This document shows positions 1,334 to 37,580 of a stretch of 64,000 nucleotides of DNA, piece by piece. The stretch comes from a virus, in IMG/VR virus record IMGVR_UViG_3300035698_012504, positions 122,694 through 186,693 of that record; one strand, given 5' to 3'. The notes beneath the pieces are model-generated. The model did no database searches. It was not told where the DNA came from and saw only the letters and a list, made by a program, of their open reading frames with translations. Every line of letters begins with the position of its first letter. Position 1 is the stretch's first letter. The position numbers and the translations under genes are program-made.

Positions 1334-3079
1334 ATGTTTAGATGTGAAATATGTGATAGAGAATTTAAAGGAATAAGATCGTTAGGTGTCCACATTAAAA
1401 GAATACATATGATTGAAACATCTGAATATTATTTAAAATATATTAATTTTAATAATAAATGTAAAATTTGTTCTAAAGAAACCAATTTTATAAATCTATC
1501 TAAAGGATTTAGAAAATATTGTAGTGGGTCTTGTAGAAATAAAGATCCTTATTATCAAAATAAGATTAAAGATACTAATTTAAAAAAATATGGTTCGGTT
1601 TCCCATTTTAATAATAATAAAATTCGTGATAAAATAAAGAAAACAAACTTAAAAAGATATGGGGATGATAACGCATTTAAAAATAAAGAGATTCGTGAAA
1701 GACAGAAAAAAACCCTCATAGAAACCTATGGTGTGGACCATCAATCAAAAATACATTCTGTTAAAAAAATATTAAGTAAAAAATCCAAAGAAAATTATCC
1801 AAATTATATAGATCAGATTAAACAAACAAATTTAGAAAGATATGGAACAGAATATGCGATTGCTTCAGATGAATTAAAAGAAAAGATAAAAAAATCCAAT
1901 CTAAAAAAATATGGGGTAGATAATGTGTTCAAACTCAAATTTTTCCAAGATAAATCAAGAAAAACAATAAAAGAAAAATATGGTGTAGATCATATATCTC
2001 AAAGTGAAATAAGAAAGAAAACAATTTTTACGAATTACTACACCAAACTTTTAACAGCTGAAAAATTTACTTCGAAAATTCTTCCCCTTTTTAATTTAAA
2101 AGATTATGATGGTACTAATAATAAATATTCATGGAAATGTAATAAATGTGATAATGAATTTGAAGATCATTTAAACAATGGACATATACCTAGATGTAAA
2201 AAGTGTTATCCAATTTGGTCAGGATCCTCAAAACTTGAAAAAGAAGTTAGAGAATTTATTGAAACACTTAGCATTAATTTCACCTCTAATACTAGAAAAA
2301 TTATTTTTCCTTTTGAATTAGATGTTTATATTCCAGAAAAAAATATAGCTATAGAATTTAATGGATTATATTGGCATAGTGAATTAAATGGGAAAAATAA
2401 GAATTATCATCTAGATAAAAATTTGAAGTGTAAAGAAAAAGGAATTCAATTAATTCATATATTTGAAGATGAATGGATTAATAAACAAGAAATAGTTAAA
2501 TCTATTATTAAAAATAAATTGGGATTGACTGAGACAAAAATATACGCTAGAAAATGTTTAATAAAAAATATTAATAATAAAGAAGCAACTGATTTTTTGA
2601 ATGATAATCATGTACAGGGAAGAATAAATGGAAAACATGTTGGTCTATATTTTAAAGACGAGTTGGTATCCATTCTTACAATTGGAAAAACTAGATTTAA
2701 TAAAAAATACGAATATGAAATATTAAGATTTTGTAATAAAATTAATACGAATACTATCGGTGGGTTTAGTAAGTTGCTAAAATATGTTATTAAAAATCAT
2801 TCTATATGTTCTTTAATTACATATGCAGATATACGTTATAGTGATGGAAAGTTATATAACTCTTCCGGTTTTAATCAATTAAATAAATCTACACCAAACT
2901 ATTTTTACTTAGATAAAAACTATAATTCTAGATTGAGTAGAATTCAATTTCAAAAACATAAATTAAAAAATTTATTAGAATCATTTGATCCTAAGTTAAC
3001 TGAGTGGCAGAATATGCAACTCAATGGGTATGATCGTATTTGGGACTGTGGGAATTTAGTATATGAATATAACTTTTAA
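1334..3079 (+). CDS. free-standing homing-endonuclease-like protein (N-terminal C2H2-like zinc finger, tandem KYG(V/S)xN repeats, DUF559/Vsr-like PD-(D/E)XK nuclease domain)
   Basis: N-terminal CEICDREFKGIRSLGVHIKRIH. At least six repeats of the form NLK(K/R)YG..N....KI...I.K. Nuclease-like FPFELDVYIPEKNIAIEFNGLYWHSE...KNLKCKEKGIQLIHIFEDEW. Sits in the 12-22 nt gaps between the RNAP beta-prime C fragment and beta genes. Confidence 0.55.
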   Translation: MFRCEICDREFKGIRSLGVHIKRIHMIETSEYYLKYINFNNKCKICSKETNFINLSKGFRKYCSGSCRNKDPYYQNKIKDTNLKKYGSVSHFNNNKIRDKIKKTNLKRYGDDNAFKNKEIRERQKKTLIETYGVDHQSKIHSVKKILSKKSKENYPNYIDQIKQTNLERYGTEYAIASDELKEKIKKSNLKKYGVDNVFKLKFFQDKSRKTIKEKYGVDHISQSEIRKKTIFTNYYTKLLTAEKFTSKILPLFNLKDYDGTNNKYSWKCNKCDNEFEDHLNNGHIPRCKKCYPIWSGSSKLEKEVREFIETLSINFTSNTRKIIFPFELDVYIPEKNIAIEFNGLYWHSELNGKNKNYHLDKNLKCKEKGIQLIHIFEDEWINKQEIVKSIIKNKLGLTETKIYARKCLIKNINNKEATDFLNDNHVQGRINGKHVGLYFKDELVSILTIGKTRFNKKYEYEILRFCNKINTNTIGGFSKLLKYVIKNHSICSLITYADIRYSDGKLYNSSGFNQLNKSTPNYFYLDKNYNSRLSRIQFQKHKLKNLLESFDPKLTEWQNMQLNGYDRIWDCGNLVYEYNF

Positions 3080-3100: not shown

Positions 3101-6100
3101 ATGCAATATGCCAGTATAAAACCATTCAAACCGGTTACGAGTATTATAATTCCGCCGAAGGGAATTAAAGGAAAAAATGTATGCTTAGCAGTTTTTCCAG
3201 AGAACGATTTGTTCTTTGACTTCTATAGATTAATGGGAATAAAACCTGCGTTTGTTAAGCACGTTCATGTTCCTATAGTTCAGAAGCCGGTTCGAATTAG
3301 GTTGACTCCTACATACAAAAAAATAATCAAGTCTCATAAGTTGTTCCCATCACAAGGGCACTTCGGAGATTATACAAAAGTATCAGACAAAAACTTTTAT
3401 CTTGATATGAGTATGTATATAGCAGCTCTACAAGCGAAGTTTAAAATTACTAGATATAACTCTGGAAGAGCATACGTATCAATTCAAAAATTAATATCTG
3501 CTTTAGATAGTGTACCTGCAGAATCACACGAAAGAGTTATATTATATGCTGTCAATATAGATAAACCAATACCTAAGAAACTTTTAAGCAGAAGGATATA
3601 TCCTGTATGGGCCATGCTGTTTCAATACATTAGTGGCCGAACAGAATCTCTCCCATTCGATAAACTATTACTATTTATATATGGACAAGACGAAAAAAGA
3701 TTTGTATTATTGTATGATAAAGATAAGAAAGTAAATCTAGCTAGAATTAAAAGCTATCTTAAGAAACTTAAATCACTAGATAAAGATGATGAAGAAGCTG
3801 TCGAATCTGAGATCACCTCACAAAAAACTGTAGAAAATCTAAACTCTACCACAACACTTACAAATGTAGAGAAAGACAACGTTCAGAAAACAGTAGATGA
3901 ATACCTAGAAGTTGATCCGTCTGCCAAAGAAGAACCTATTGGGAATATAGTAGCTGCTGCGATTGCATATAAGGTAACAGGTAGTATTGAAAAAGCAAAA
4001 TCTATTTCTAAAAAGGCAACATCAACTGATAAAGAAAAAATAATACAAAACTATGCTAAAGATCTTATACCAAAACAAAAAGCCTATCCACAGATTAGAT
4101 CTGCTATGGTTAAGATGGCAAGTCCAGCAGATATAATAGATAATCAAGTTCCTACTCACCTCCTTGAGAAAAGAAAGAGAGACTTTGCTGAGAATTTAGT
4201 TGAGGATTTAACTGATGCATTCAAGGTCTTAGAAAATAAAGATATGCCTCTGAAGGTTAAAGATATAGAAGTTAAAACTATGAAGTCTCCTCCCAGTGAT
4301 CTAACCCCTACAATCAAGGATAGATATACCGTGACTATGACTGATGATAAAGGAGTAGACCAGACTGTATATATGGATCTCCCTCACCTTACAGAGAACG
4401 GAACGTTTATGATATATGGTCAGGAGAATGTATTAATCAATCAGATTATACCTTATCCTATATTCTTTCTAAAACCATACCTTGGTAGGTTTGAATCATC
4501 TTACTCTACTGTAGCAATATATAGCAAGAGACTTAAAAGAACTTCTTATTTAATGATTCATATAGGTAACTATAAAATTCCATTGACTATGTTCATGGCA
4601 TATAAATATGGATTAAAACAATGTCTAAATCTATTTGGAATGAAATATACTCTTACTGATAAAAAAGATGGAGAGAATTCTCTAAAGTTACATGATGGAA
4701 CATTCATTAATTTTACATTCGAAGATGATATACTTGGACCAGAGGTAATTGAATCATTTAGATTTGCTCTTCCTAGTATTCCAGAAGGAGAAGATATAGA
4801 ATCTTCTGAGACATGGCAACACGGACTGGAATCATATACAGATAATAGAAACTGTGTTGATACTATGGATCAGATATGGGCAAATATTGTGACCCCTATA
4901 GAGATTAAAATTCTTAAATCAAAAGGGGATCCTACTAATATAAGAGACATAATTATATTCATAGCTAAGGAAGTTGTTCGTGGTCGAGTAGATGATAGAA
5001 ATGGTTGTGATAAACTCAGAATAAGATCGTCTGAATTGTTTGTGGCATTAGCACAGAAGCAGGTACTGATGGCATACAATGAGTATATGAGTAAGAGAGC
5101 GGGTGGAGATACAACTGCTACTCTATATATAAATCCTACGTCTGTGTTCACTGATGTTATAACCTCTCAGAACGTTGCTATATTAGAAAATATAAATCCC
5201 GTTGAAGAGTTATCAACAATGACAAGAATATCCCCTGTTGGTATTGGTGGTGTTCCTAAGTCGGAAGCATTTCCAAGACAGGCTATGAACGTCCACCCAA
5301 CATACTTCGGATGTATAGATCCTTTAGATACACCAAACGGGCCAGGGGTTGGATTCCAGCAGCATCTGACAGTCGGTGCGACAATAAGTAATGTCAGAGG
5401 TCAGATGATTGTTAAGGATAGAAAGAATGTTAAAGCCACGGAAATATTAAGTGTCAGTCCAGCGTTAATACCATTTGTAGAATCGAATGAAGGTGCTAGA
5501 GTTACTATGGCTGCCGGTCAGCAGAAACAGGCAGTGCCTATTAAATTCCCAGAGAACCCTGCGGTTCAAACAGGATACGAAGCATGTCTCACCCCACTTC
5601 TATCAGATAGCTTTATTAAGAAGAGCCCAGTGGACGGAGAGATTGTAGATATAAAGGATGGATTTATTTTAGTACTTGATAAAAGTGGAAAGACTCATGT
5701 AGTTGGTACTCGTCCAGCTAACCTTAAGAGTGGTGGCGGTCAGGATGGGCTAAGTGTATTTCATCCAACTGTTAAACTAAAACAGAAGGTTAAAGAAGGA
5801 ACTATCATAGCAGAAGGGGCCAATGTTAAGGACGGATTAATATCTAATGGTGTTAATATGTTGACTGGAATGATGCCATGGAAAGGATATAATTTTGAGG
5901 ATGGTATGGTGATAAGTGAGTCAGCAGCGGCGAAATTCATATCTGTTCACGCAGAACATAACGAAGCACTCGTCACCCCAGAAGAAGATATATCATTCAT
6001 ACAAAGCATCGGAAACACAATTAGAAAAGGAGACATCCTCCTGACATATTCAACAGCAATATATGATGTACAGGCAAACAAACATATACGAGCAGAGAAC

Positions 6101-7144
6101 GGACGTGTAACAGACATAGAAGTATATTCTAATGTACCTGAAGATGCTATACCAGAAAAGCTATTACCAGCATATGAACGATTTAGAGATCAATATAAAA
6201 CATTGCATGGTAAATATCCTATAGGACACTTCAGAGAGAAGGGTGAGAAGTTTGAAGGGATTAAAGTAAAATTTATTATTGCACAAGAGCTTAGTATATT
6301 TAAAGGAGATAAACTTAATAATCGTCACTTCAACAAGGGAGTTGTTGCTATCATTGAGAAGGATGAAAATATGCCTGAGACTCCTTGGGGTGATAAATTG
6401 GAGATGTTATATAATCCATTAAGTATTTTAAATAGAATGATTACTGGTCAGTTATTAGAAATGGCAACTGGATTAGTAGCTAAAAGAATTGCAGATCTAA
6501 TGGAAGAACTACCAAGAAAGAGATTCGAAGTAATATATCATAAGATACTTGTACTAATGGATGGAACTAAAGGAAAGACATATAGTAAACGGGTACATCA
6601 AAAGATGTCAGCATTATCTGATCCAGCATATGAAACAATTAGAAAACAAGTTATAAAGAATGGATTCGTTCCAATTATATGTGCTCCATTTAAGAGTCCA
6701 GATAGAAAAGCAATTGAGGTAGCTCTGAAGTTAGTTGGTAGATCGGCTAGAACTAAATTAAAGATAGCTCATTTAGGTGTGACAACAGAACCAGTAGCAG
6801 TAGGATATGTTTATGTTAACAAGCTTGAGCATATGTCAGAGAAGAAGATCCACTCCAGAGGAACAGGCGGATATAATTCAATAACATTTCAACCAACTGC
6901 AGGTAAAAGGAAAGGTGGTGGTCAGAAGTTAGGTGAGTATGATATGTATTCTTTATTAGGATGGAATTGTCCCACTCTAATTGATGAGTTCTTTGGACCA
7001 CTTAGTGCCGATCATGCTACAAAGAACCAGATGGTATCTGAAATACATCAAACTGGATCTACAGAATTTAAGACTCCTGTTCATAATCCAGTTAAAGATC
7101 TATTCTCTCAGATGATGACAGCCATACACTTGGAGTCTGAATAA
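3101..7144 (+). CDS. multisubunit RNA polymerase beta subunit (full length, set 1)
   Basis: LPHLTENGTFMIYGQENVLINQIIPYPIFF (beta region D: GTFxINGxERV). GQQKQAVPI. FKGDKLNNRHFNKGVVAIIEKDENMP (GDKxxxRHGNKGV). HSRGTGGYNSITFQPTAGKRKGGGQKLGEYDMYSLLGW (GGQRFGEMEVWALEAYG). Confidence 0.9.
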   Translation: MQYASIKPFKPVTSIIIPPKGIKGKNVCLAVFPENDLFFDFYRLMGIKPAFVKHVHVPIVQKPVRIRLTPTYKKIIKSHKLFPSQGHFGDYTKVSDKNFYLDMSMYIAALQAKFKITRYNSGRAYVSIQKLISALDSVPAESHERVILYAVNIDKPIPKKLLSRRIYPVWAMLFQYISGRTESLPFDKLLLFIYGQDEKRFVLLYDKDKKVNLARIKSYLKKLKSLDKDDEEAVESEITSQKTVENLNSTTTLTNVEKDNVQKTVDEYLEVDPSAKEEPIGNIVAAAIAYKVTGSIEKAKSISKKATSTDKEKIIQNYAKDLIPKQKAYPQIRSAMVKMASPADIIDNQVPTHLLEKRKRDFAENLVEDLTDAFKVLENKDMPLKVKDIEVKTMKSPPSDLTPTIKDRYTVTMTDDKGVDQTVYMDLPHLTENGTFMIYGQENVLINQIIPYPIFFLKPYLGRFESSYSTVAIYSKRLKRTSYLMIHIGNYKIPLTMFMAYKYGLKQCLNLFGMKYTLTDKKDGENSLKLHDGTFINFTFEDDILGPEVIESFRFALPSIPEGEDIESSETWQHGLESYTDNRNCVDTMDQIWANIVTPIEIKILKSKGDPTNIRDIIIFIAKEVVRGRVDDRNGCDKLRIRSSELFVALAQKQVLMAYNEYMSKRAGGDTTATLYINPTSVFTDVITSQNVAILENINPVEELSTMTRISPVGIGGVPKSEAFPRQAMNVHPTYFGCIDPLDTPNGPGVGFQQHLTVGATISNVRGQMIVKDRKNVKATEILSVSPALIPFVESNEGARVTMAAGQQKQAVPIKFPENPAVQTGYEACLTPLLSDSFIKKSPVDGEIVDIKDGFILVLDKSGKTHVVGTRPANLKSGGGQDGLSVFHPTVKLKQKVKEGTIIAEGANVKDGLISNGVNMLTGMMPWKGYNFEDGMVISESAAAKFISVHAEHNEALVTPEEDISFIQSIGNTIRKGDILLTYSTAIYDVQANKHIRAENGRVTDIEVYSNVPEDAIPEKLLPAYERFRDQYKTLHGKYPIGHFREKGEKFEGIKVKFIIAQELSIFKGDKLNNRHFNKGVVAIIEKDENMPETPWGDKLEMLYNPLSILNRMITGQLLEMATGLVAKRIADLMEELPRKRFEVIYHKILVLMDGTKGKTYSKRVHQKMSALSDPAYETIRKQVIKNGFVPIICAPFKSPDRKAIEVALKLVGRSARTKLKIAHLGVTTEPVAVGYVYVNKLEHMSEKKIHSRGTGGYNSITFQPTAGKRKGGGQKLGEYDMYSLLGWNCPTLIDEFFGPLSADHATKNQMVSEIHQTGSTEFKTPVHNPVKDLFSQMMTAIHLESE

Positions 7145-14601: not shown

Positions 14602-14925
14602 ATGTCAGAAAATAAAAAACCATTTGAAATTGAAACGCCCGGCGAACTTCTACGAGCTATTCTATTTGTTCTTGGCAGTATAGTTTTTAGTGGTGTATTG
14701 GTGTTACTTGCTTGTAAAATAATTATAGATATAGTTATAGCATTATCATATACTTCATTAGTAGGAATAATAATAGGATCATTTATAATTGCAACAGCCT
14801 CAGTAATTGGAAGTCCAATACAAGAAGAGATGATTAAATACTATGAAGAAAAAAATAAGAAATATTTAGAAGAAAAAAAGAAAAAAGAAGATGACAAAGA
14901 TGTTCAAACTAACAGTAAGAGTTAA
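14602..14925 (+). CDS. small membrane protein
   Basis: Two long hydrophobic segments (ILFVLGSIVFSGVLVLLACKII... and LVGIIIGSFIIATASVIG) followed by a Lys/Glu-rich tail. Confidence 0.4.
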   Translation: MSENKKPFEIETPGELLRAILFVLGSIVFSGVLVLLACKIIIDIVIALSYTSLVGIIIGSFIIATASVIGSPIQEEMIKYYEEKNKKYLEEKKKKEDDKDVQTNSKS

Positions 14926-15328
14926 CTTCTCAGCAGCACATAGATTAAAATATAGTAAAAGTGACTGTGCGTTTTTACATGGCCACAATTATAAACTATT
15001 AGTATACTATGAAGGAGATCTATCTCCAACAAGTGGAATGGTAGAAGACTTCAAAGAAATAGAATCAAATATTGCAGGATATGTATTAGAGAAGTTCGAT
15101 CATTCTATAATAATAAGTTCACATGACACTGAAATGTTAGATGTTATTGGCGAGATTTCACCTAAGAAAATAGCACTAGTAGATGGAGAACCTACTGCAG
15201 AAGTAATAGTTAACGACATTGCAAAACATATAAGATTTCTTGCACTAGAGTCAGACTTCTATAAAGGTTACAGCGAATTAGAATTATGGGAAACAGATAA
15301 ATACTGCGTCTCATTAAAATTATATTAG
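14891..15328 (+). CDS. queD: 6-carboxy-5,6,7,8-tetrahydropterin synthase QueD (PTPS family)
   Basis: KLTVRVNFSAAHRL...CAFLHGHNY...GMVEDFKEIE are the PTPS/QueD zinc-site and catalytic motifs. The true start may be ATG 14900. Confidence 0.8.
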   Translation: MTKMFKLTVRVNFSAAHRLKYSKSDCAFLHGHNYKLLVYYEGDLSPTSGMVEDFKEIESNIAGYVLEKFDHSIIISSHDTEMLDVIGEISPKKIALVDGEPTAEVIVNDIAKHIRFLALESDFYKGYSELELWETDKYCVSLKLY

Positions 15329-15336
15329 GAGTACAT

Positions 15337-17832
15337 ATGTTAATACGAAAGTCAGGTATCATCCTTCCGAAAGATGACCCTCAGTTAGAGTTGATAAAAT
15401 CAGACCTCACTAGGAAAGTCTTTCAGTGGGATGGATCATGGAAAACTATGACCTTTTACGAGGACATGTCAGACTACATAGTTATCCCTAGATTCTACCC
15501 TGCTCTTGGAAAAATAAGAGATGATAGAACTGACGGAGATGATATAGAAATAGAATCAAAAATAAAACCTTTGAATTCTAGACAAGAGAAGGTGATGAAC
15601 TTTCTTGAGAAAACAGAGAATTGTATACTTAGACTCGAACCTGGGAGTGGGAAAGCTCAACCAATTTATTCTAAAATATTGACACCTATTGGTTGGAAAA
15701 ACCTTCAAGATATTCAAATCGGGGATAATGTAATTGATCCAGTATCTGGAAGAAATGTAAAGGTATTAGGTGTTTTTCCTCAAGGTAAAAAAGAAGTATA
15801 TAAATTAACTTTTAATGATGGAGCCACAACGTTTTGTTGTAATGATCATTTATGGAAAGTAAAATATAAAAGATCATGTATTGGTGAAAAAGAATATTGG
15901 AAGATTAAACCATTAAATGATTTAAAAAATGATTATTATATAGATAAACAAAAAAGACTTAAATATTTTATCCCAATTACATCTCCTATTGAATTTGAAA
16001 ATCAAGAAATAAAAATAGACCCTTATCTTTTAGGTTGTTTGCTTGGAGATGGAACAATTAGATTTGGTGGTGGAACTATATCGTTATCTTCCAGGGATAA
16101 AGAATTGATAGAAACTTGTTCGGTGTTATTAGATAAATATAATCTTGAGTTCAAAAAAGATAACAAATATGACTACAGAATAAGAATTAAAAATAATAAG
16201 TTTAGAAAAAAATTTAGAAAAAAAGGAAAATATTTAAATCCTTTAAAAATATATTTGGATGAATTGGGTCTTCTGGGTAAAAAATCATATGAAAAATTTA
16301 TACCAAATACATATAAATTTAATTCTATGTATAATCGAATTAGTATTCTACAAGGACTCTTGGATACCGATGGATATGTTTCAGATAAAAAACAAGAAGT
16401 TAGTTTTTCATCTACATCTTATACGTTATGTAAAGATGTTAAATTTATAGTTGATAGTCTTGGTGGAAAATCCAAAATATATCCAAAACAAACATATTAT
16501 ACATATAAAAATATTAAGAAAAAAGGAAGACCTTCCTGGGTAGTAAATATAACTTTAGATAAAAATATAATTCCATTTAGATTATCTCGAAAAGTTAAAA
16601 GATATAATAATATTCATAAATATCCTCCTTCGAGAGCAATAAAAGATATTAAATATATTGGAAAAGAAGAATGTCAATGTATAAAAGTTGATTCAGATGA
16701 TGGATTATACATAACTGATGATTTTATAGTAACACATAATACTGTTACAGCAATAGAAACTATATGTAGATTAAAGAAACGAACTATTATATTTGCTCAT
16801 AAAACAGAACTATTAGATCAATGGAGAGGTGAATTTCTTAAACATACTAATCTAACAGAAGATGATATTCAGAAGGTTAATACAGACGATAAGAAGTTTG
16901 ATGGCTGTCTGAAAAAGAAAATCATTTTATGTACACCCCATACTATATCTGTAGCTATTAGATTAAATAAAAAAGATTTCATACGCGCATTATTAAAAGC
17001 AGGCATAGGTATTTGTTTTATAGACGAATGCCATGTTGGAATAGGTCCAGAGGAATTCTCCAAGAGTTCAATTTATATAAACGCCAAACGAATATATGGA
17101 TTATCTGCTACACCATTTAGACCAGATGGAAATGATGACATAATAAGATATCACCTCGGAGAGGTAAAGTATTTTCCTCCGGAGAAAGATGAACTAATAA
17201 ACCCCAAAGTTCTTATGGTACATATGCCGTTCCATGTATTTGAAACATATAATATGAAACAAAATTTAATGTGGGGAGGACGATTTCAGAATGCTAGATA
17301 CTGGAATCTATTGGCGAAGCAACCTAAGTATATTCATAATGTTGCGTCGATTATAAAGAGAGCATACACAGAGGGAAGAAATATATTAGTACTTGGCAAT
17401 AGAGTTCAGGGTCTAATGAACATGGCCGAGGCATGTAATATTCATAAAAAAGACATCGGTATATTTATGAGCACTGCCACCAGTGAACATAAGAAAAGAG
17501 TTCTAGAACTTTCAGATACTACAGATCTTAAAGAAGCATTCTATAAAAAGCGAGTTGTGTTTTCTACATATGGTATGGCTAGGGATGGAAACAACAGAAA
17601 AGATTTAGACTTTCTTGTATTATGTATACCGACTGGCAACATAGAACAAGCAGTGGGTAGAGTTCAGAGAGAACTCAAGGGGAAACGTAGACCAATAGTA
17701 ATAGATTTAGTAGATACCCAAAGTCCTAAGAATAAATCTGGAAATTATATATTTGAATACCAGGCACAGAGAAGGAAAGAATTCTATGCTAAGATGGGTT
17801 GGAAAGTTGAGACGATATTTTTTAAAGAATAA
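15337..17832 (+). CDS. SF2 (DExH) DNA/RNA helicase interrupted by an intein in the Walker A motif
   Basis: The extein reads ...LEPGSGK|TVTAIE... (Walker A GSGKT once the intein is removed). CFIDECH (motif II), LSATP (motif III), QAVGRVQR (motif VI). Confidence 0.8.
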   Translation: MLIRKSGIILPKDDPQLELIKSDLTRKVFQWDGSWKTMTFYEDMSDYIVIPRFYPALGKIRDDRTDGDDIEIESKIKPLNSRQEKVMNFLEKTENCILRLEPGSGKAQPIYSKILTPIGWKNLQDIQIGDNVIDPVSGRNVKVLGVFPQGKKEVYKLTFNDGATTFCCNDHLWKVKYKRSCIGEKEYWKIKPLNDLKNDYYIDKQKRLKYFIPITSPIEFENQEIKIDPYLLGCLLGDGTIRFGGGTISLSSRDKELIETCSVLLDKYNLEFKKDNKYDYRIRIKNNKFRKKFRKKGKYLNPLKIYLDELGLLGKKSYEKFIPNTYKFNSMYNRISILQGLLDTDGYVSDKKQEVSFSSTSYTLCKDVKFIVDSLGGKSKIYPKQTYYTYKNIKKKGRPSWVVNITLDKNIIPFRLSRKVKRYNNIHKYPPSRAIKDIKYIGKEECQCIKVDSDDGLYITDDFIVTHNTVTAIETICRLKKRTIIFAHKTELLDQWRGEFLKHTNLTEDDIQKVNTDDKKFDGCLKKKIILCTPHTISVAIRLNKKDFIRALLKAGIGICFIDECHVGIGPEEFSKSSIYINAKRIYGLSATPFRPDGNDDIIRYHLGEVKYFPPEKDELINPKVLMVHMPFHVFETYNMKQNLMWGGRFQNARYWNLLAKQPKYIHNVASIIKRAYTEGRNILVLGNRVQGLMNMAEACNIHKKDIGIFMSTATSEHKKRVLELSDTTDLKEAFYKKRVVFSTYGMARDGNNRKDLDFLVLCIPTGNIEQAVGRVQRELKGKRRPIVIDLVDTQSPKNKSGNYIFEYQAQRRKEFYAKMGWKVETIFFKE
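15655..16740 (+). mobile_element. LAGLIDADG intein (362 aa) apparently beginning with Ala rather than Cys/Ser
   Basis: Block A AQPIYSKILTPIGWKNLQDIQIGDNV. Two LAGLIDADG motifs, LLGCLLGDGTIRFGGG and ISILQGLLDTDGYVSD. C-terminal DDFIVTHN followed by +1 Thr (TVTAIE). Removal recreates GSGKT. Confidence 0.7.
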
Positions 17833-19460: not shown

Positions 19461-19620
19461 ACCCCTAGATACTTTAGATCTTAATGATGCATCATCAGAT
19501 GAATTAATTAATGTATTACAGGAGCATGAGGAAGTATTAGAATCTATTGAGAGTAATGAACCTAACGAGGAAGTCAAACTAGAGTTGTTTGACGGTGGAG
19601 AAATCAGAAAGGACGGCTGA
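19396..19620 (+). CDS. hypothetical acidic protein
   Basis: 74-aa ORF in a different frame overlapping the previous ORF by 65 nt. Its end abuts the start of the next gene. Confidence 0.3.
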   Translation: MPTWINLKNSKRKSKSKKSAAEPLDTLDLNDASSDELINVLQEHEEVLESIESNEPNEEVKLELFDGGEIRKDG

Positions 19621-22253
19621 TGTATTTTAACATATGGCCAGAAGAACCAACTGAAAACTTTTCCTGGGCTATTTGTAAGAACCCCGAGTCCATCTTCATG
19701 AGAGAGATGGGTAAGGAAGGAAGACGAATAGCTGGGTGGTTTTCAGTCGATGAAAAGACTGGGCGACAATCATATCATGGGTCTGCAGTAAATGCGCCCC
19801 TATCATTTTTAGCAACTGCAAAGAAACTTAATCTACCAGCATATGTCCACAATCATATGACTTCAGTCTGTCCATATAACCTCAAAGCATTTGATGAAAT
19901 CCTCAGATCAGTAATGCGGGGAAGAAATGCATCTGGTGGACACTTAACTGATGAACAATTCTCAGAGAAAAGAATGTGGGGAGCATACATGGGACCATAT
20001 ACTGTGGACCATGAGTATGCCTCTTCATCATTTTCACAAGTAGGAATATCGTGTGTAGATACAATCGGTCTTCCTGGTGGAACACATATGTACTCACTAA
20101 ACTCAATAGAACCAATGTCCATAACAGAATTTCTCCAGAAGGTATATGTAGTAAGCTTTTATCTTTCATTCAATAGAGATAGCATTTACTCAATGGGTGA
20201 AGAACAAGTTGTTAAGTTTATAAATCTTTGTAAAGAATGGATAATGGATTGCCCAATCAAAAACATGATTGTAAATAAAATATGTAGATATAACAAGAAC
20301 CTTATTAAATTATTTGAAACTGGACTGATAGAAGGTATTGAAGACGAAGATCTTAGAGGTGAAATTGCCAAGAAAATAGATGAGAGATTTACACGGATAG
20401 GCCTTCATCAGAAGCGTCACGATCTTGTACTTGAGCTCATGAAAAATCTCCATGCAGATGGAAAGTTTAATACCTTTGTTGATCTTGGTTTCTCAGAAGG
20501 TAAACTATTGTATGCCCTCAGAGAACAAGAAGAGTTTAATTCAGTACGTGCAGTTGGTATAGAGCTAGAAGAGTATCGTGTTAGAAAAGCTCGAAAGAAA
20601 ATGAGAAATACGAATACCAAGTTGATACAATGTGATGCGATGTTCCCGAATATCACTGAAGTGGATGTTAATCCAGACGTATTAGCTTGTGTTGAATTCA
20701 TAGAACACTTCGACAGTGAAGATAGACGTAACCTCGTATCCATAATCAGGGACGTCTTCCAACCGAAGCATCTAGTACTGACTACACCGAACGTAGCATA
20801 TAATGATATAATAGGATTGGAAGAAGGAATATGGAGACATAGAGATCATAAGATAGAGTTCAACTACGATGAGTTTGTTGCCGAGGTAGTAATTCCTCTT
20901 GCGAAGAAATACACTGTGGAAATGCGCCTCCTTGTCCCAGAAGAAGAAATACAACCATCGTTCTGTTTAGTATGTACCCGAGTTGAAACTCCTATCAAGA
21001 AGAAAAAGAAGAGAGGGAGAGGTAGATCTCCTGTTAACCATCAAACAATATCAATAAGAAAATGGCAGGAGATGTATCAAGGAATTCACTTCAGTCGCGT
21101 AGGGTATACTGTCAGACCCAATGAGATAGCGAATGGATATTCATCTCGCGCATTCAGAATGAATGGAAAAAATATATTCTATCTTGCCCCAACAATAAGC
21201 CCGTGCGATTGGACTGAGGGAGCTCCAGACTTCTTAGAGCACCCTCTTTCTTGCTTTGAGTACTATAGAAACCGTGGAGTTACTAAGCTCATTGGTGAAG
21301 AAAAGTACATGGGTTCAAGAGGATATATACTATGCTTCAAAAATCCAGAGGATGCTAAGGCAGCTGGATACAGATTACCACTAGTTATAAATTCAAGAGG
21401 TGGGTTCCCATTCTTCACCGACGATGCCACACTGATGGCCATATGGGAAGAGCTCGCCCCTGCAATGAAATTTGATTTCATGGTACTAGATGCAGAGATC
21501 ATGCCCTGGAATTTGAAGGCTGGTAAGATGATTGATCGCCAGTTCAGACAGCCAGGTGAATGTGCATTTCTTTCTAGATCATACGCATCCGGAACCTCTC
21601 TGGAGGTTCCAAGCGATTACACCCAAAGTTCTGTAGACTTCCTAGAAACAGTAGACACATATGCTGCAGATTCCAGACTAGAAATAAGACCGTTCCATGT
21701 TCTAGCATATGGATCATGTGATCAGCATCCCAAAGGACTTAGGTTCAGAGATGTTGTGAATGGATTCTTTATGGATCATGGAAAACATCTAGAATTAATT
21801 CAAGATATCTCAAATACAAAAGGCGATGCCAGTTTCATTAAACATTGTGTTGGACATGTTGTATACTTACAAGAGCCGAAGTCAGTAGCAGATTCCATTG
21901 AGAGATGGATGAAGTATTGTGACAATGAAGTAGGCGAAGGATTCGTATACAAACCAATGGACTTCATGAGATATTCAGCGAATGGATATTACATTCAACC
22001 AGCAGTTAAAGTTCGAGGAAAGAGATACCTACAGATAGTATATGGTATCGACTATCTCCAACCTGATTATTTCGAACAATTAAAGAGAAGGGGAACGAAG
22101 AAGAAGAGAGTCCTTGCAGCTCAAGAGTTTGACGTGTCCCTCAATATGTTAACTGCATTCCTTAGAAGAGATCCGGTGATGCTTAAGCGGTACACTGCAG
22201 CGTTTATCGGAATGGAATCAGTAAACATGAGAGGTATTGACGCGACTCTTTAA
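19620..22253 (+). CDS. Hen1-like RNA 3'-terminal 2'-O-methyltransferase fused to an ATP-dependent RNA-ligase-like nucleotidyltransferase
   Basis: Methyltransferase motifs: FVDLGFSEGKLL (SAM motif I), LACVEFIEHF, LVLTTPNVAYN, WRHRDHKIEFNYDEF (Hen1 metal-site signature). Ligase-like motifs: EEKYMGSRGYI (motif I Lys), FMVLDAEIM (III), EGFVYKP (IV), VKVRGKRY (V). Confidence 0.65.
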   Translation: MYFNIWPEEPTENFSWAICKNPESIFMREMGKEGRRIAGWFSVDEKTGRQSYHGSAVNAPLSFLATAKKLNLPAYVHNHMTSVCPYNLKAFDEILRSVMRGRNASGGHLTDEQFSEKRMWGAYMGPYTVDHEYASSSFSQVGISCVDTIGLPGGTHMYSLNSIEPMSITEFLQKVYVVSFYLSFNRDSIYSMGEEQVVKFINLCKEWIMDCPIKNMIVNKICRYNKNLIKLFETGLIEGIEDEDLRGEIAKKIDERFTRIGLHQKRHDLVLELMKNLHADGKFNTFVDLGFSEGKLLYALREQEEFNSVRAVGIELEEYRVRKARKKMRNTNTKLIQCDAMFPNITEVDVNPDVLACVEFIEHFDSEDRRNLVSIIRDVFQPKHLVLTTPNVAYNDIIGLEEGIWRHRDHKIEFNYDEFVAEVVIPLAKKYTVEMRLLVPEEEIQPSFCLVCTRVETPIKKKKKRGRGRSPVNHQTISIRKWQEMYQGIHFSRVGYTVRPNEIANGYSSRAFRMNGKNIFYLAPTISPCDWTEGAPDFLEHPLSCFEYYRNRGVTKLIGEEKYMGSRGYILCFKNPEDAKAAGYRLPLVINSRGGFPFFTDDATLMAIWEELAPAMKFDFMVLDAEIMPWNLKAGKMIDRQFRQPGECAFLSRSYASGTSLEVPSDYTQSSVDFLETVDTYAADSRLEIRPFHVLAYGSCDQHPKGLRFRDVVNGFFMDHGKHLELIQDISNTKGDASFIKHCVGHVVYLQEPKSVADSIERWMKYCDNEVGEGFVYKPMDFMRYSANGYYIQPAVKVRGKRYLQIVYGIDYLQPDYFEQLKRRGTKKKRVLAAQEFDVSLNMLTAFLRRDPVMLKRYTAAFIGMESVNMRGIDATL

Positions 22254-34246: not shown

Positions 34247-35485
34247 TTGAAAGGAAAATTTATGCCATCAAGTGGATACAGAGTATCAGTCATGAAATAT
34301 TTCACTGATGCTCAGTGTGAAATTACAGCGTATCTGGATAATTGTAACTTCGAAAAAAAGAAATGGTTAGGTAAATTATTTGAAGGTCTTCCGACAATTA
34401 TATCATTAAGTGGGAAACATATATATTCAGTCAAGACAAATATTAATGTAAATCACGAAACATTTAGAAGATTGATAGAGAACTTCTCAATGAAAAAACT
34501 CAATCAATCATTTCTAGTTAATGACTTTAACAATGCATTTGCGTTATTTTGTTATGGTGCTGATGATATAATCTTTGCTTACATATCTACTAGTGGTAAA
34601 ATATTCTTTATCGATGTGGCATGTCAACACTTTTATGATGTGTTAGGTAAAGATGAATTCGAAACAGTAATAGCAGACATATTTGAATTTAGAGAACAGG
34701 CAGTACTAAGATATGATAAGTCAAAAATAGAAAAAGGGGAAGCAGATGGTACATTAAGATCAGATACTGCAGACTCCATTGCGCACAAGTTAGCAGTATC
34801 ATTACCAACTGATAGAAAAATAACGGAGGAGATGATCACGCGTGTTATCGATGAGTCGGTATCAGCTCTAGTCGATCCCGAAAGCAGTAGCCCAATGTCT
34901 CATAGAATACTACTTGCTAGAAATGAATTCTATCGTTTAGCAATTAAAGATTATCTACTTAGTAATGATAAGTTAAAGTCACAGGCATTTAACGATGGAT
35001 TCAATGTTGGCCTTACTTTTGTAAACGTTTTACGTAAAGTAGGATATGAAGTTGAGGGAGAGTATTTTGTAAAACATCCGAAGTGGGTACCATCTAAGTG
35101 TTGCCACGATGGTACAATATATATTCTTCCAGCGGAACATCCATACACTATAAAGAAATTAATGATACCTGTTAATTGTGTAAAACCTGGTAGACATATT
35201 CAATTCTTGGCAGTTGGTAATCATCCAAATGTCAACGGTGGTAAAACAACGCCCGGCGGAGTATGCCTAGGTAGCTATCATCCAAAAGAACTCACCATTG
35301 GATCAGGTGGGAAATTTAATGAACAACAGTTTATGGATGCATTGATAGGAGCAGAGACTACTATTAAAATGATTAACTTTGATTCTTCATATAAACAATT
35401 GTCGTCATCCCTTAGCTTCAGTGAAATGGATAAAGAATCTCTGAGTTATGACAAGACTAAGAAGAAAAAGATAAGGAAAATATAA
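34247..35485 (+). CDS. E2 (UBC-fold)-like ubiquitin-conjugating-enzyme homolog with an N-terminal domain of unknown function
   Basis: C-terminal GTIYILPAEHPYTIKKLMIPVNCVKPGRHIQFLAVGNHPNVNGGKTTPGGVCLGSY resembles the UBC core (PxxYPfkPPkvxFxTxIyHPNIxxxGxICLDIL). Its stop overlaps the start of the E1-like gene (ATAATG). Confidence 0.55.
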   Translation: MKGKFMPSSGYRVSVMKYFTDAQCEITAYLDNCNFEKKKWLGKLFEGLPTIISLSGKHIYSVKTNINVNHETFRRLIENFSMKKLNQSFLVNDFNNAFALFCYGADDIIFAYISTSGKIFFIDVACQHFYDVLGKDEFETVIADIFEFREQAVLRYDKSKIEKGEADGTLRSDTADSIAHKLAVSLPTDRKITEEMITRVIDESVSALVDPESSSPMSHRILLARNEFYRLAIKDYLLSNDKLKSQAFNDGFNVGLTFVNVLRKVGYEVEGEYFVKHPKWVPSKCCHDGTIYILPAEHPYTIKKLMIPVNCVKPGRHIQFLAVGNHPNVNGGKTTPGGVCLGSYHPKELTIGSGGKFNEQQFMDALIGAETTIKMINFDSSYKQLSSSLSFSEMDKESLSYDKTKKKKIRKI

Positions 35486-36480
35486 TGCCACCATCTGAGA
35501 AAAAGATTCCAGGGAAGCTTTCCAAATATACTGATAAGTTAGTAAGAGATGCGGTTGGAAATCAATACGACAGAGAGACTAGATTAAACATAGGGACTAC
35601 TGACTATAACTTATATAACGCAGCAATAGTAATTGGATGTGGGGGAACAGGTTCTTGGACCAGCTTCTTCCTTGGAAAAATAAGAACAATTCAGCATCTT
35701 TATCTCATTGATCCTGATACAATAGAGACATCCAATTTACAAAGAACTCCTTATCATTATTCTCATATAGGAGAACCAAAAGTATCTGCTCTAGCATCTA
35801 TCATCTCTGGTTCTTCATTAGACACAACAATCTTTCCAATAAATAGATACTTTAATGAAGAGACTGCAAATGATTTAATATCTGAGAAATTACTTCAGGA
35901 CTGTGTAGATAAATCTGTGTTGGTAATAGATTGTAGAGACAATGACTTTCAAGACCATGATCAGATTAAGAGACTCGCGTCCGAGTTTTCATTTAATAAG
36001 TTGGCTATACTAAGATGTGCATATAATGGAATATCTGTAACCCTTGACTTTGATCCAGAGAGTCACCCATCATGGGGAGAAGGCGGATATACAGAGACTC
36101 CATCACATGTGATCCCAGCTTCTATGGCAGCATTCTTAGTAGTGTCAGCAGCGTTTAAATATTATGAATATAAGAACAAGAAGCCTTGGATATTTAATAA
36201 TCCTATGACTTTTAACTCAACCGATTTTCTCGAAATGCTATCTATGGGTCATGCACTAGTGCAACCACCTACATCAGAAAAAGATAGAATAGAATTGTCT
36301 ATAGTTCTTAAAGATATGATCCAACAGAAGGAAGTATCATCTAGTAGAAAAGGCATTGTCAGAGAAATAGTGGCTCGTTATTTACGTGCCCAGTTTGATG
36401 ATATAAAAGAAAAACTTACGCCTGAGATTATTGAGAGGGCAGTAGAAATCGCATTGAAAGAAACGGAGAAAGATTCATAA
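35485..36480 (+). CDS. E1-like (ThiF/MoeB/HesA family) adenylyltransferase
   Basis: AAIVIGCGGTGSWTSFFLGKIRTIQHLYLIDPDTIETSNLQRTPY: Rossmann GxGxxG followed by the DxDxxExSNLNRQ motif. Confidence 0.8.
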   Translation: MPPSEKKIPGKLSKYTDKLVRDAVGNQYDRETRLNIGTTDYNLYNAAIVIGCGGTGSWTSFFLGKIRTIQHLYLIDPDTIETSNLQRTPYHYSHIGEPKVSALASIISGSSLDTTIFPINRYFNEETANDLISEKLLQDCVDKSVLVIDCRDNDFQDHDQIKRLASEFSFNKLAILRCAYNGISVTLDFDPESHPSWGEGGYTETPSHVIPASMAAFLVVSAAFKYYEYKNKKPWIFNNPMTFNSTDFLEMLSMGHALVQPPTSEKDRIELSIVLKDMIQQKEVSSSRKGIVREIVARYLRAQFDDIKEKLTPEIIERAVEIALKETEKDS

Positions 36481-37580
36481 TGCCTATAACAAGACTTAAG
36501 AAAGATAAGAGTGTACCCAAAGATGTGGGTGGATCGGGATTGGTTCCTAAAGCTAGCAAGCTTGCCCCGACTCACGCCTATGGAGCGGGTGTAAAGACTT
36601 CGAACGCGTGGGAATCCAAAGATCCAAAAATAATAGATTTCGTTAGTACTAGTAAAACAGTTCCTTGCGCAATTCCAGAACCAATTTATCAAGTATGTAG
36701 AGGATTAGATGCAGAATATCCCAGTGTAGAGTGGAGCATTCTGGTAAAGGGTAGCTGGGATGTTGAAAGAGATATGTTTGTATTGGAAGACGAATACTTT
36801 CTTCCTCAGCAAGAAGTCTCCGGAGCCCATGTGGATTACGAAGAGGACAATCCAGACTTCAATGGAGTGATACACAAACATCCAGGTGGAGTGACAAGTT
36901 TCTCTGCCACAGATGAATCATATATTAACAGGAATTTTATAATAAGCTTATTGTGGGTTAACCACGATTTTCATTATGGTATTGCTAACACTAGATCCAG
37001 AGATATGGGTGCAACAAGAATAAGACTTAAACTTAAACCAATACCGATGCAGGATCATATAGCAGTCCTTCCGGAAAATCATGCAGAGAAAATAAAAGAA
37101 AGATCATATGCTTATAAAAGATCATATGCTTATAGTGGTAGTCAATTTGGTGGGCTAGGAAACTGGCAAGGCAGAGGCAACCACAACGTTCACTCTAGCC
37201 AAGGCGCAGGTATGAGACACCAGGGTACCCAGAACGGCAAGCCAGGATACTGGCAAGGCGGTGTATTCCACCCTACCGAAGGTCATGGCTCGAACGACTC
37301 GTCTTCGGGGATGACCGGGAATAGAAGCGGTTCTGCGTTCGCCGAAGATGCTGACCTCGATCCCGACGAAGACCGCGCAGGCGGTGGGATAGGTGGTTGG
37401 AACCCATACGAAGATGATGACCTTCAATCATTATCAGGCGTCCCCGATGACGACGACGATGATGACGGAAAACCTCTAGGCGCACAATCGTACAACGATA
37501 TGGACGCCGAAGAATGGGAAGCATATATGGAATCTATTGACCACGAGTACGCAAAAATACCAGCGTGGATGTGGAAGTAA
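36480..37580 (+). CDS. JAB/MPN (JAMM) metalloprotease with a long Gly/Gln/Asp-rich low-complexity C-terminal tail
   Basis: Perfect JAMM motif NGVIHKHPGGVTSFSATDE (HxHx7Sx2D) with upstream acidic residues (DVERDMFVLEDE). The tail at 37050-37560 is GC-rich and disordered-looking. Start overlaps the E1 stop (TAATG). Confidence 0.8.
   Translation: MPITRLKKDKSVPKDVGGSGLVPKASKLAPTHAYGAGVKTSNAWESKDPKIIDFVSTSKTVPCAIPEPIYQVCRGLDAEYPSVEWSILVKGSWDVERDMFVLEDEYFLPQQEVSGAHVDYEEDNPDFNGVIHKHPGGVTSFSATDESYINRNFIISLLWVNHDFHYGIANTRSRDMGATRIRLKLKPIPMQDHIAVLPENHAEKIKERSYAYKRSYAYSGSQFGGLGNWQGRGNHNVHSSQGAGMRHQGTQNGKPGYWQGGVFHPTEGHGSNDSSSGMTGNRSGSAFAEDADLDPDEDRAGGGIGGWNPYEDDDLQSLSGVPDDDDDDDGKPLGAQSYNDMDAEEWEAYMESIDHEYAKIPAWMWK

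Follow-up and report, generated by a model that had tools for sequence, protein, structure and literature searches.

Class 3 inteins were first described in 2010, in helicase-type genes of phages, and they lie mostly in the P-loops of ATPases (PMC2807308). The definition of the class includes a residue 1 that is not a nucleophile (PMC2807308), and the positions that we refer to below (B:10, B:12, F:4, G:5, G:6, G:7, and G:8) are defined in PMC2807308 and PMC5050341. The prototype is the DnaB intein of Mycobacteriophage Bethlehem (MP-Be DnaB; Tori et al. 2010, PMC2807308). Its N-terminal cleavage persists when the +1 residue is mutated to alanine, and mutants of the cysteine at F:4 lose both splicing and N-terminal cleavage. 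Two class 3 mini-inteins have been solved: MsmDnaBi1 from M. smegmatis (6bs8) and MchDnaB1 from M. chimaera (6rix and 6riy). Class 3 inteins in PhoH proteins have also been described (PMC6195587).

In contrast, class 2 inteins such as the one in KlbA from Methanocaldococcus jannaschii lack the WCT triplet (Trp at B:12, Cys at F:4, and Thr at G:5); they have Asp at F:4, Ser at G:6, and Cys at +1, and their host is the archaeal KlbA protein (PMC2807308, PMC4031507). The naturally split intein gp41-1 (6qaz) belongs to class 1. Beyer et al. grafted the WCT triplet and Ala1 onto gp41-1, but class 3 splicing was not obtained by that alone, and the WCT-grafted variant (6riz) does not splice (PMC7664689). 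The triplet is thus necessary but not proven to be sufficient.

Here we describe an intein from a 64,000-nucleotide stretch of DNA (the window), whose source appears to be a large, jumbo-like phage. Judging from its residues and alignments, it very probably belongs to class 3 (WCT type) and carries a LAGLIDADG homing endonuclease, and it sits in the P-loop of an SF2 helicase.

The helicase gene and its insertion site

By its Pfam matches and homologues, the open reading frame at 15337-17832 is an SF2 helicase. AGGAG lies 8 nt 5' of its ATG. The gene is laid out as follows:

15337..17832, + strand: host gene for an 831-aa precursor (intein included) of an SF2 (ResIII/DEAD-type) helicase (ORF list, Pfam, homologues)
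15337..15654, + strand: N-extein, residues 1-106, whose C-terminal end is the Walker A sequence ...LEPGSGK (sequence and inteinless homologues)
15655..16740, + strand: intein, 362 aa, Ala1 to Asn362, protein residues 107-468 (alignments, inteinless homologues)
16741..17832, + strand: C-extein, residues 469-831 and the stop codon, with the remainder of the helicase core (sequence, Pfam, homologues)

The insert reads AQPIYSKILTPIGW...IGDNV...DDFIVTHN and is flanked by ...LEPGSGK and TVTAIE.... Its flanks match the ResIII helicase family (E = 1.4e-12, Pfam search), and the insert itself has homology to inteins of solved structure (gp41-1, E = 4.5e-11, PDB sequence search) and matches database proteins by the hundreds (best E = 9e-83). 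Excising the insert in silico gives EPGSGKTV. This regenerates a Walker A motif (GxGKT) with the helicase core downstream, and it is Thr469, the +1 residue (16741-16743), that completes GSGKT. The spliced product is predicted to have 469 aa; homologues of the helicase, which are up to 56% identical, are 460-490 aa long (420-515 aa for the full-length ones among the 120 listed). Along with the inteinless homologues described below, these matches bear out an earlier sequence-only reading of this DNA, which had placed a helicase P-loop intein at 15655-16740 and had pointed out that removing residues 107-468 restores GSGKT. Its numbering of block A (A1, T10, G13, and G23-D-N-V) and of T469 is also correct.

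The intein splits the Walker A motif after its Lys and before its Thr (GSGK|T), which is a classic P-loop site. More than 110 inteinless homologues have an unbroken ...EPGSGKT..., and among the 120 extein homologues listed (3 of which are fragments that do not cover the site), G-x-G-K-T/S is uninterrupted in every protein that covers the site except for one (P0205). Among about 115 other members of the helicase family, a single one has an intein at this site, as expected of a mobile element. In P0205, the first LAGLIDADG motif of the allelic intein is degenerate.

The sequence-only reading had proposed a search for an inteinless allele in related phages, and there is one: a syntenic 307-kb phage contig encodes an inteinless helicase that has the same GSGK|T junction, and its unoccupied site reads GAACCTGGTAGTGGTAAA|ACCGTC. 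Among the inteinless alleles, the best one shares 56% identity with our helicase. At our locus, the reconstituted intein-free site reads ...CTCGAACCTGGGAGTGGGAAAACTGTTACAGCAATAGAA.... As far as sequence comparison goes, the junction and the restored Walker A motif are fixed by the inteinless homologues and by the syntenic empty site. When IMG/VR was scanned with peptide patterns from the spliced helicase, nothing matched, so there was no close relative (above ~80% identity) in which a recent empty allele could be sought. An exact-sequence query with the 831-aa protein gave no entry in the contig index, and 24 kb of the window had no megablast match among 50,697 phage records, a collection that therefore lacks this phage.

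Splicing residues and class of the intein

The splicing domain is in two lobes:

15655..15990, + strand: N-terminal splicing (HINT) lobe, blocks A and B (alignment to gp41-1, MchDnaB1, and MsmDnaBi1; conservation; AF2 beta-strands)
15838-15840, + strand: Cys62 (B:7), N-terminal splicing lobe
15847-15849, + strand: His65 (B:10), N-terminal splicing lobe
15853-15855, + strand: Trp67 (B:12), N-terminal splicing lobe, in H65-L-W67
16615..16740, + strand: C-terminal splicing lobe, blocks F and G (alignments, conservation)
16678-16680, + strand: Cys342 (F:4, predicted nucleophile), C-terminal splicing lobe, in ECQCIKVD
16708-16710, + strand: Tyr352 (F:15), C-terminal splicing lobe
16732-16734, + strand: Thr360 (G:5), C-terminal splicing lobe
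16735-16737, + strand: His361 (G:6), C-terminal splicing lobe
16738-16740, + strand: Asn362 (G:7), C-terminal splicing lobe

An AF2 model of the intein (pLDDT 91.6, pTM 0.91) resembles endonuclease-bearing inteins, and Foldseek matches it to inteins that include gp41-1, MchDnaB1, and MsmDnaBi1. In the model, the two lobes form a predicted HINT (Hedgehog/intein) fold, and the intein has the C-terminal Asn.

All residues of the class 3 signature are present: Ala1, H65, W67, C342, T360, H361, N362, and Thr+1. Residue 1 (codon GCT, 15655-15657) lacks the nucleophile of Ser, Thr, or Cys. The Trp at B:12 is two residues past the His at B:10 and aligns with the HxW of 6rix, 6bs8, and 6riz, and C342 at F:4 is aligned, in 6rix and 6bs8, to the Cys in vrCVEVD. 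G:5 is Thr, in T360-H361-N362, and Thr469 fits the Ser or Thr (rarely Cys) of class 3 inteins at +1. The Trp, the Cys, the Thr, the two His (in block B and at the C-terminus), and the Asn are invariant across the 120 best homologues, and 118 of these have Thr+1. In the best 148 copies from an exhaustive search, the Trp and the Cys are each found in 147 and the Thr in all 148 (triplet kept in 147/148). Furthermore, a profile of the family matches the proven class 3 inteins over both lobes (6rix, E = 4.7e-13; 6bs8, E = 9.3e-13), with W, C, and THN aligned, and it ranks the WCT-engineered gp41-1 (6riz) higher than the wild type.

Two observations go against the class 3 assignment. B:7 is Cys here, but MP-Be DnaB has Ser and the mycobacterial DnaB inteins have Asp at that position, and the closest solved relative in sequence is not a proven class 3 intein but the class 1 intein gp41-1 (6qaz; family profile E = 4e-18). 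The match to gp41-1 is strong in the N-terminal lobe (VFP.GKK.YKIT..DG....C...HL), and gp41-1 also ends in THN. However, in gp41-1 residue 1 is Cys, B:12 is Phe, and F:4 is Asp, and gp41-1 follows the class 1 route, is split, and has no endonuclease.

With MP-Be DnaB, which we compared by its described residues rather than by direct alignment, the intein shares a non-nucleophilic residue 1, the numbering of His65 and Trp67, Cys at F:4, a Thr-His-Asn C-terminus, Thr+1, a LAGLIDADG endonuclease, and a helicase-type host in a phage; MP-Be DnaB differs in having Pro1, Ser at B:7, and a DnaB-like host (here, Ala1, Cys, and an SF2 helicase). MsmDnaBi1 and MchDnaB1 have Ala1, His65, Trp67, Cys at F:4, and THN in common with our intein, and the N-extein ends in GK in both cases ("SVGK" in the mycobacterial DnaB proteins). 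However, these are bacterial mini-inteins that lack an endonuclease and have Asp at B:7, and they are less similar in sequence than gp41-1 is.

If the intein follows the mechanism of its family, from which we infer these steps, then His65, Trp67, and Thr360 would position Cys342 at block F position 4, and Cys342 would attack the Lys106-Ala107 peptide bond, so that the N-extein would be held as a thioester (the block F branched intermediate). Thr469 would then take over the N-extein on its hydroxyl (giving the block G branched intermediate), and cyclisation of Asn362 would free the intein. Finally, an O-to-N acyl shift would form the Lys106-Thr469 bond, which would restore GSGKT and hence ATP binding by the helicase.

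Other explanations for the insert

The sequence-only reading had explained Ala1 differently, by a class 2 (KlbA-like) mechanism in which Thr469 would attack the Lys106-Ala107 amide directly and would form a block G branched intermediate in one step. It was right that the canonical first step of class 1 is impossible here, because residue 1 is Ala. Ala1 is also common to KlbA inteins (the M. jannaschii intein has it and so lacks a linear (thio)ester first step), the His at B:10 is present, and B:7 is a hydrogen-bonding residue (Cys). In the class 2 KlbA intein, a C+1A mutation does away with all N-terminal cleavage. However, the hydroxyl of Thr is a weaker nucleophile than the thiol of Cys in a direct attack on an amide, which disfavours this route at a Thr+1. 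Moreover, the WCT triplet is complete (W67, C342, T360), F:4 is Cys, G:6 is His, and +1 is Thr, and the intein sits in a phage SF2 helicase instead of an archaeal KlbA. The alignment to inteins of classes 2 and 3 that the reading had itself proposed went against it: class 3 DnaB inteins were matched at about 1e-13, and no KlbA-named entry in PDB was matched at E ≤ 10 by either the intein sequence or the family profile. We rejected class 2 on the four defining features and consider it very improbable.

A class 1 mechanism would be restored if the junction were shifted so that the insert began at Ser104, which lies three residues upstream (in GSGK) and would become a nucleophilic Ser1. The sequence-only reading had named this junction as an alternative to look for. 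In the inteinless alleles, however, the junction is GSGK|T and the mature protein retains the Ser, the Gly, and the Lys. Also, an insert that started at Ser104 would have to end at ...FIV rather than at an Asn followed by a nucleophile (Ser, Thr, or Cys); the alignment to gp41-1 sets Ala1 on Cys1 without an indel; and the -1 residue is Lys in 120/120 intein homologues. The alignment, the Lys at -1, and the inteinless alleles refute the Ser104 junction, to which we give next to no credence, and the Ala start stands. Another explanation is that the intein has decayed and no longer splices, so that the insert is retained and the helicase is inactive or is a mere carrier of the endonuclease. There is a precedent in Arthrobacter, where the class 3-like intein in Arth_1007 is described as a pseudogene (PMC3196547), and the degenerate motif in P0205 implies that decay occurs in this lineage. 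But the 831-aa frame is unbroken through the intein, all of the catalytic splicing residues and three endonuclease residues are retained, and the AF2 model is of high confidence. The interrupted Walker A motif is in a helicase that is conserved, together with its neighbours topoisomerase II and QueD, in related phages, so selection should oppose a loss of function. A dead intein therefore seems unlikely to us, and a class 3 intein that splices is the reading we prefer.

The homing endonuclease and the wider family

Between the lobes of this probable class 3 intein is the endonuclease:

15991..16614, + strand: LAGLIDADG homing-endonuclease domain (Pfam, PI-SceI alignment, conservation, Foldseek)
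16027-16053, + strand: LAGLIDADG motif 1, LLGCLLGDG, intein residues 125-133, with Asp132 (PI-SceI alignment)
16294-16296, + strand: Lys214, in KFIP (PI-SceI alignment, conservation)
16345-16374, + strand: LAGLIDADG motif 2, ILQGLLDTDG, intein residues 231-240, with Asp239 (PI-SceI alignment)

The insert matches LAGLIDADG_3 from Pfam (E = 1e-16) in two stretches, and Foldseek matches for the domain are PI-SceI, TliVMA, and I-DmoI. The catalytic Asp, Asp, and Lys of PI-SceI align with D132, D239, and K214, which are kept in 118-120 of the 120 best homologues. As the sequence-only reading had claimed, both motifs are intact, and the two-motif endonuclease looks intact with its catalytic residues kept, which points to activity. 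PI-SceI and the Tli and Pho VMA inteins match best in structure (Foldseek E = 1e-19 to 1e-15) and share the HINT and LAGLIDADG architecture, but they are class 1 inteins (Cys1) in V-ATPases and are just ~15-18% identical to ours. Homing would involve a cut by the endonuclease in alleles that lack the intein, near GAACCTGG(G/T)AGTGG(G/T)AAA|AC, and repair would copy the element in. The GC content of the intein is low (25%, and 11% for GC3, versus 34-37% for the exteins), which suggests that it was acquired from a more AT-rich source. A scan of the window with the family HMM, in all six frames, found no second copy. At the 5' edge of the window, the scan also picked up another intein, class-1-like, of which it matched the endonuclease part.

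Ala1 had been considered rare, but within this family it is the rule: residue 1 is Ala in 112 of the 120 best homologues and in 125 of the 148 best copies from the exhaustive search. That search found ~5,400 cluster representatives of the family at E ≤ 1e-30, and there are matches in 856 phage records. (P0241 in the representative library is the identical protein from the window's own record and is not independent.) By sequence, then, the intein is nothing out of the ordinary in a family that is known and very large. Jumbo phages in GenBank with the same Ala1 P-loop intein include PhiPA3 (gp233, an SNF2-domain helicase from a Pseudomonas phage) and Escherichia phage ph0011 (a helicase). These inteins and those of PhoH have the same architecture as ours, with K|A...THN|T junctions and the shared motifs AQPL (at the start), HLW, ECQCI, and IVTHN; they are 37-45% identical to it over the full 362 aa, and their host proteins differ. 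With identities of at most 45-52%, our intein represents a distinct lineage without a recent transfer from any sampled copy.

More speculatively, the phage P-loop clade might be the sister group, natural and of class 3, to gp41-1, an ultrafast class 1 intein. We regard this idea as doubtful, though worth stating because the family profile fits gp41-1 better than it fits the proven class 3 inteins. It was already proposed in 2025 that gp41-1 is transitional between classes (PMC12245125). If the idea is true, a switch between classes 1 and 3 took place within one close-knit sequence clade, and comparing its members could identify the compensatory changes that the WCT graft on gp41-1 lacked (PMC7664689). 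A second possibility concerns conserved cysteines near the active site: two in block B (C61 and C62) and one, C340, beside the predicted nucleophile C342. By analogy to what has been reported for DnaBi1 of M. smegmatis, such a cluster could make the maturation of the helicase sensitive to redox conditions.

In practical terms, the right annotation for the gene is a helicase that contains an intein and has a 469-aa product after splicing, and not an 831-aa protein or two fragments. The significance beyond correct annotation is small, as Ala1 is a standard mark of class 3 and does not imply a new splicing chemistry. Intein engineers may find a use for this full-length class 3 intein, which looks intact and is fairly closely related to gp41-1, and the copy also adds one host family, the SF2 helicase of uncultured jumbo-like phages, to this family of mobile elements.

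The intein-bearing helicase and its junctions

The intein interrupts an SF2 helicase gene that reads as a single long frame, with AGGAG 8 nt 5' of its ATG. Its parts are laid out as follows (a slash marks a splice junction here and below).

15337-17832, + strand: helicase ORF with insert, 831 aa
Residues 1-106: N-extein, ending ...CILRLEPGSGK/
15655-16740, + strand: intein, residues 107-468, AQPIYSKILTPIGWKNLQDIQIGDNV ... DDGLYITDDFIVTHN
Residues 469-831: C-extein, starting /TVTAIETICR

The coordinates and residue numbers in the sequence-only reading were all right. According to Pfam, the ResIII/DEAD helicase domains are confined to the insert's flanks, while the insert matches LAGLIDADG_3 in two stretches (E = 1e-16). 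In a sequence search against solved inteins, the N-terminal 70 residues of the insert matched gp41-1 (E = 4.5e-11) and the middle matched PI-SceI (E = 9e-9). In the gp41-1 alignment, Ala1 of the intein lies opposite Cys1 of gp41-1, without an indel.

We modelled the intein plus six extein residues on each side with AlphaFold2, using an alignment of 68 sequences, and obtained a confident prediction (mean pLDDT 91.6, pTM 0.91). The predicted structure has beta-rich N and C lobes flanking an alpha/beta middle domain. When it was compared to the PDB with Foldseek, the top matches were endonuclease-bearing inteins (TliVMA at 1.8e-19, then PI-SceI, PhoVMA and PI-PfuI); I-DmoI-type LAGLIDADG enzymes and the mini-inteins gp41-1, MchDnaB1 and MsmDnaBi1 ranked lower. 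The model and the Foldseek matches confirm the two-domain intein/endonuclease architecture; they do not tell splicing classes apart.

To place the junctions, we searched for homologues of the conceptually spliced helicase (469 aa). Among the best 120 of the 269 homologues returned, nearly all are 460-490 aa long, with at most 56% identity and on contigs of up to 335 kb. Three of these 120 are fragments without the insertion-site stretch; in all but one of the others, the motif L-E-P-G-x-G-K-T/S-V is unbroken. An inteinless homologue (P0122) lies on a 307-kb phage contig that shares the window's gene order: the large and small subunits of topoisomerase II, a small ORF, QueD/PTPS and the helicase. 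Its empty site reads GAACCTGGTAGTGGTAAA/ACCGTCGTAGCAAT, and the window's two flanks, when joined, read GAACCTGGGAGTGGGAAA/ACTGTTACAGCAAT. Because the inteinless homologues and the empty site read straight through, we place the junctions at Lys106/Ala107 and Asn468/Thr469, within the Walker A motif of the P-loop, as the sequence-only reading had proposed. That reading left room for a junction shifted to the upstream Ser. We exclude a start at Ser104: the Ser-Gly-Lys that such an intein would include belongs to the mature helicase in every inteinless allele, the corresponding C-terminal cut would not come after an Asn, and Lys is found at position -1 in 120/120 homologues of the intein.

Splicing class

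An intein belongs to class 3 if its residue 1 is not a nucleophile and co-varies with Trp at B:12, Cys at F:4 and Thr at G:5 (the WCT triplet), and if Ser or Thr follows at +1; the majority of these inteins are in the ATPase P-loops of helicase-type proteins (PMC2807308; PMC5050341). In block G, G:6 is the penultimate His, G:7 is the terminal Asn and G:8 is the +1 residue (PMC2807308; PMC5050341). The key residues of the window's intein are Ala1, His65 (B:10), Trp67 (B:12), Cys342 (F:4), Tyr352 (F:15), Thr360 (G:5), His361, Asn362 and Thr+1. His65 and Trp67 have identical residue numbers in the MP-Be DnaB, MsmDnaBi1 and MchDnaB1 inteins. The best 120 database relatives of the intein all have the W, C, T, H and N (120/120), and nearly all have Ala1 (112/120), Gln2 (113/120) and Thr+1 (118/120). 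When 1.84 billion cluster representatives were searched exhaustively with HMMER, 5,433 matched at E ≤ 1e-30. The top hits include 148 full-length copies; the T is present in every one of them, and the W and the C in 147 each. Of these copies, 125 start with Ala, 13 with Pro and only 3 with a nucleophile.

We also ran a profile of the family's two splicing lobes against all PDB sequences. The first-ranked match was a WCT-engineered gp41-1 (6riz, E = 6e-22), above wild-type gp41-1 (6qaz, E = 4e-18). The class 3 inteins MchDnaB1 (6rix, 6riy) and MsmDnaBi1 (6bs8) followed at E = 5e-13 to 2e-12, with HxW, rCveVD and THN aligned, and all remaining PDB inteins had E ≥ 1e-3. By this profile, the solved sequence closest to the clade is gp41-1, a class 1 split intein, and the proven class 3 DnaB inteins come after it. 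Earlier papers have pointed out that gp41-1 is akin to class 3 (PMC7664689; PMC12245125).

The sequence-only reading proposed non-canonical splicing from Ala1 by direct attack of the +1 residue, as in KlbA-type (class 2) inteins. The splicing does look non-canonical, and Ala1 is indeed a class 2 feature. But class 2 inteins are all in KlbA orthologues and have Asp at F:4, Ser at G:6 and Cys at +1, without the WCT triplet (PMC2807308; PMC4031507). All of these other features fail for the window's intein, which has the complete triplet and Thr+1, and the splicing-lobe profile matched no KlbA-named PDB entry at E ≤ 10. We therefore drop the KlbA-type reading and, judging from these residues, assign the intein to class 3 with high confidence.

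Such an intein is also common, not rare, given the numbers of HMMER matches and of Ala1 copies, and 856 phage records match it at E ≤ 1e-5. The founding members of class 3 are P-loop inteins of phage helicase-type genes (PMC2807308), "classic" Lys/Thr P-loop insertions were described in mycobacteriophage terminases (PMC5050341), and class 3 PhoH inteins were described in mycobacteria (PMC6195587). Equivalent inteins are present in GenBank jumbo phages, in the SNF2-domain helicase gp233 of PhiPA3 (GTGK/AQPLTS...DEHLW...ECQCIQV...FIVTHN/T) and in a helicase of Escherichia phage ph0011 (GAGK/AQPLDE...DEHLW...ECQCIYI...YIVTHN/T). Thus, the chemistry is neither rare nor new, and this is a further case of a known type.

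Cysteines cluster around the predicted nucleophile: Cys61 and Cys62 (15835-15840) and Cys340-Gln341-Cys342 (16672-16680). Among the best 120 relatives, Cys is found at B:6 in 105, at B:7 in 99 and at F:2 in 50. At B:7, where the window's intein has Cys, class 1 inteins have Thr, MP-Be DnaB has Ser and the mycobacterial DnaB inteins have Asp. By analogy to the Cys48-Cys118 pair of MsmDnaBi1, the cluster is a possible redox trap.

Gene content of the window

Every called gene of at least 150 aa near the helicase is on the + strand. Other features of the window are:

3-569, + strand: C-terminal portion of another intein, distinct from that of the helicase; the ORF runs past the window's 5' end
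570-1319, + strand: C-extein of that intein
1334-3079, + strand: free-standing HNH-type homing endonuclease (phrog_3339, E = 1e-145; Pfam DUF7487)
3101-7144, 42271-45069 and 45681-48698, + strand: RNA polymerase genes, two beta-like (Rpb2 domains) and one beta'-like (Rpb1 domains)
14891-15328: QueD/PTPS, directly upstream of the helicase
19620-22253, + strand: methyltransferase and PNKP-type ligase/adenylyltransferase protein, 877 aa (ligase domain, E = 6e-59)
35485-36480: ThiF family, E1-like protein, adjoining the next gene
36480-37580: JAB-like protein (weak Prok-JAB match)
37565-39307: glutamine amidotransferase-QueC fusion
Within the window: topoisomerase II, SbcC and a T4-type large terminase

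Jumbo phages with their own multisubunit RNA polymerases likewise encode beta- and beta'-like genes. The gene content is of a jumbo-type phage, in agreement with the 200-335 kb contigs of the helicase homologues. QueD, whose pairing with the helicase is kept in the 307-kb relative, and the QueC fusion are 7-deazaguanine pathway genes, and they hint at deazaguanine modification of the DNA. The 877-aa protein is similar to RNA-repair systems.

In the intein at the 5' edge, block E is of the LAGLIDADG type (ILCGIIDGDGSF), and blocks F and G are class-1-like (EYVYDLTTETGTLSINGIFSHN/TGGVSELK), with Asp at F:4. The GC content of this intein part is 21.5%, versus 35% in its own extein, which matches phrog_2926 ("virion structural protein"). 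The HNH endonuclease gene, with the host gene of this intein on one side and an RNA polymerase beta-like gene on the other, is the third selfish element in 17 kb.

Mobility and the proposed route

As the sequence-only reading had noticed, both LAGLIDADG motifs of the helicase intein are intact (LLGCLLGDG at intein residues 125-133 and ILQGLLDTDG at 231-240). Asp132, Asp239 and Lys214 (in KFIP) align with the PI-SceI motifs and are retained in 118-120 of 120 relatives. The intein's DNA has 25% GC (11% at third codon positions), versus 37% and 34% in the exteins (37% and 26% at third positions) and 34.6% in the window.

Among the best 120 of 269 helicase homologues, the site is nearly always empty, and the only other carrier is P0205, a 760-aa homologue from outside the window (47% extein identity). 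Its allelic intein, at the same Lys/Thr site, is 33% identical to the window's and starts with Glu1 (EQPIDSDVL...); it retains the W, C, T and Thr+1, but its first LAGLIDADG motif is degenerate or lost (YTLGVLIGGWCL). This suggests either independent invasions of one site or an old divergence with decay of the endonuclease. The window's helicase intein is most closely related (40-52% identity) to inteins of other P-loop proteins, for the most part PhoH, with others in helicases, RecA-like proteins and terminases. Given the low GC content, the nearly always empty site and these relatives, the intein fits a mobile element from a more AT-rich genome, not an old resident.

The class 3 route was established for MP-Be DnaB (PMC2807308) and is reviewed in PMC4031507. 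Because the intein splits Walker A, the helicase precursor would be unable to bind ATP. By analogy, Cys342, with help from His65, Trp67 and Thr360, would attack the Lys106-Ala107 amide to form a thioester-linked block F branched intermediate; transfer of the N-extein to the hydroxyl of Thr469 would give the block G branched intermediate; the 362-aa intein would be released as Asn362 cyclises to a succinimide; and the Lys106-Thr469 bond would result from an O-to-N shift. The free intein is a predicted homing endonuclease that would act on empty alleles during co-infection. At the sequence level, the full set of residues that splicing and homing would need is shown to be present, in an intact frame.
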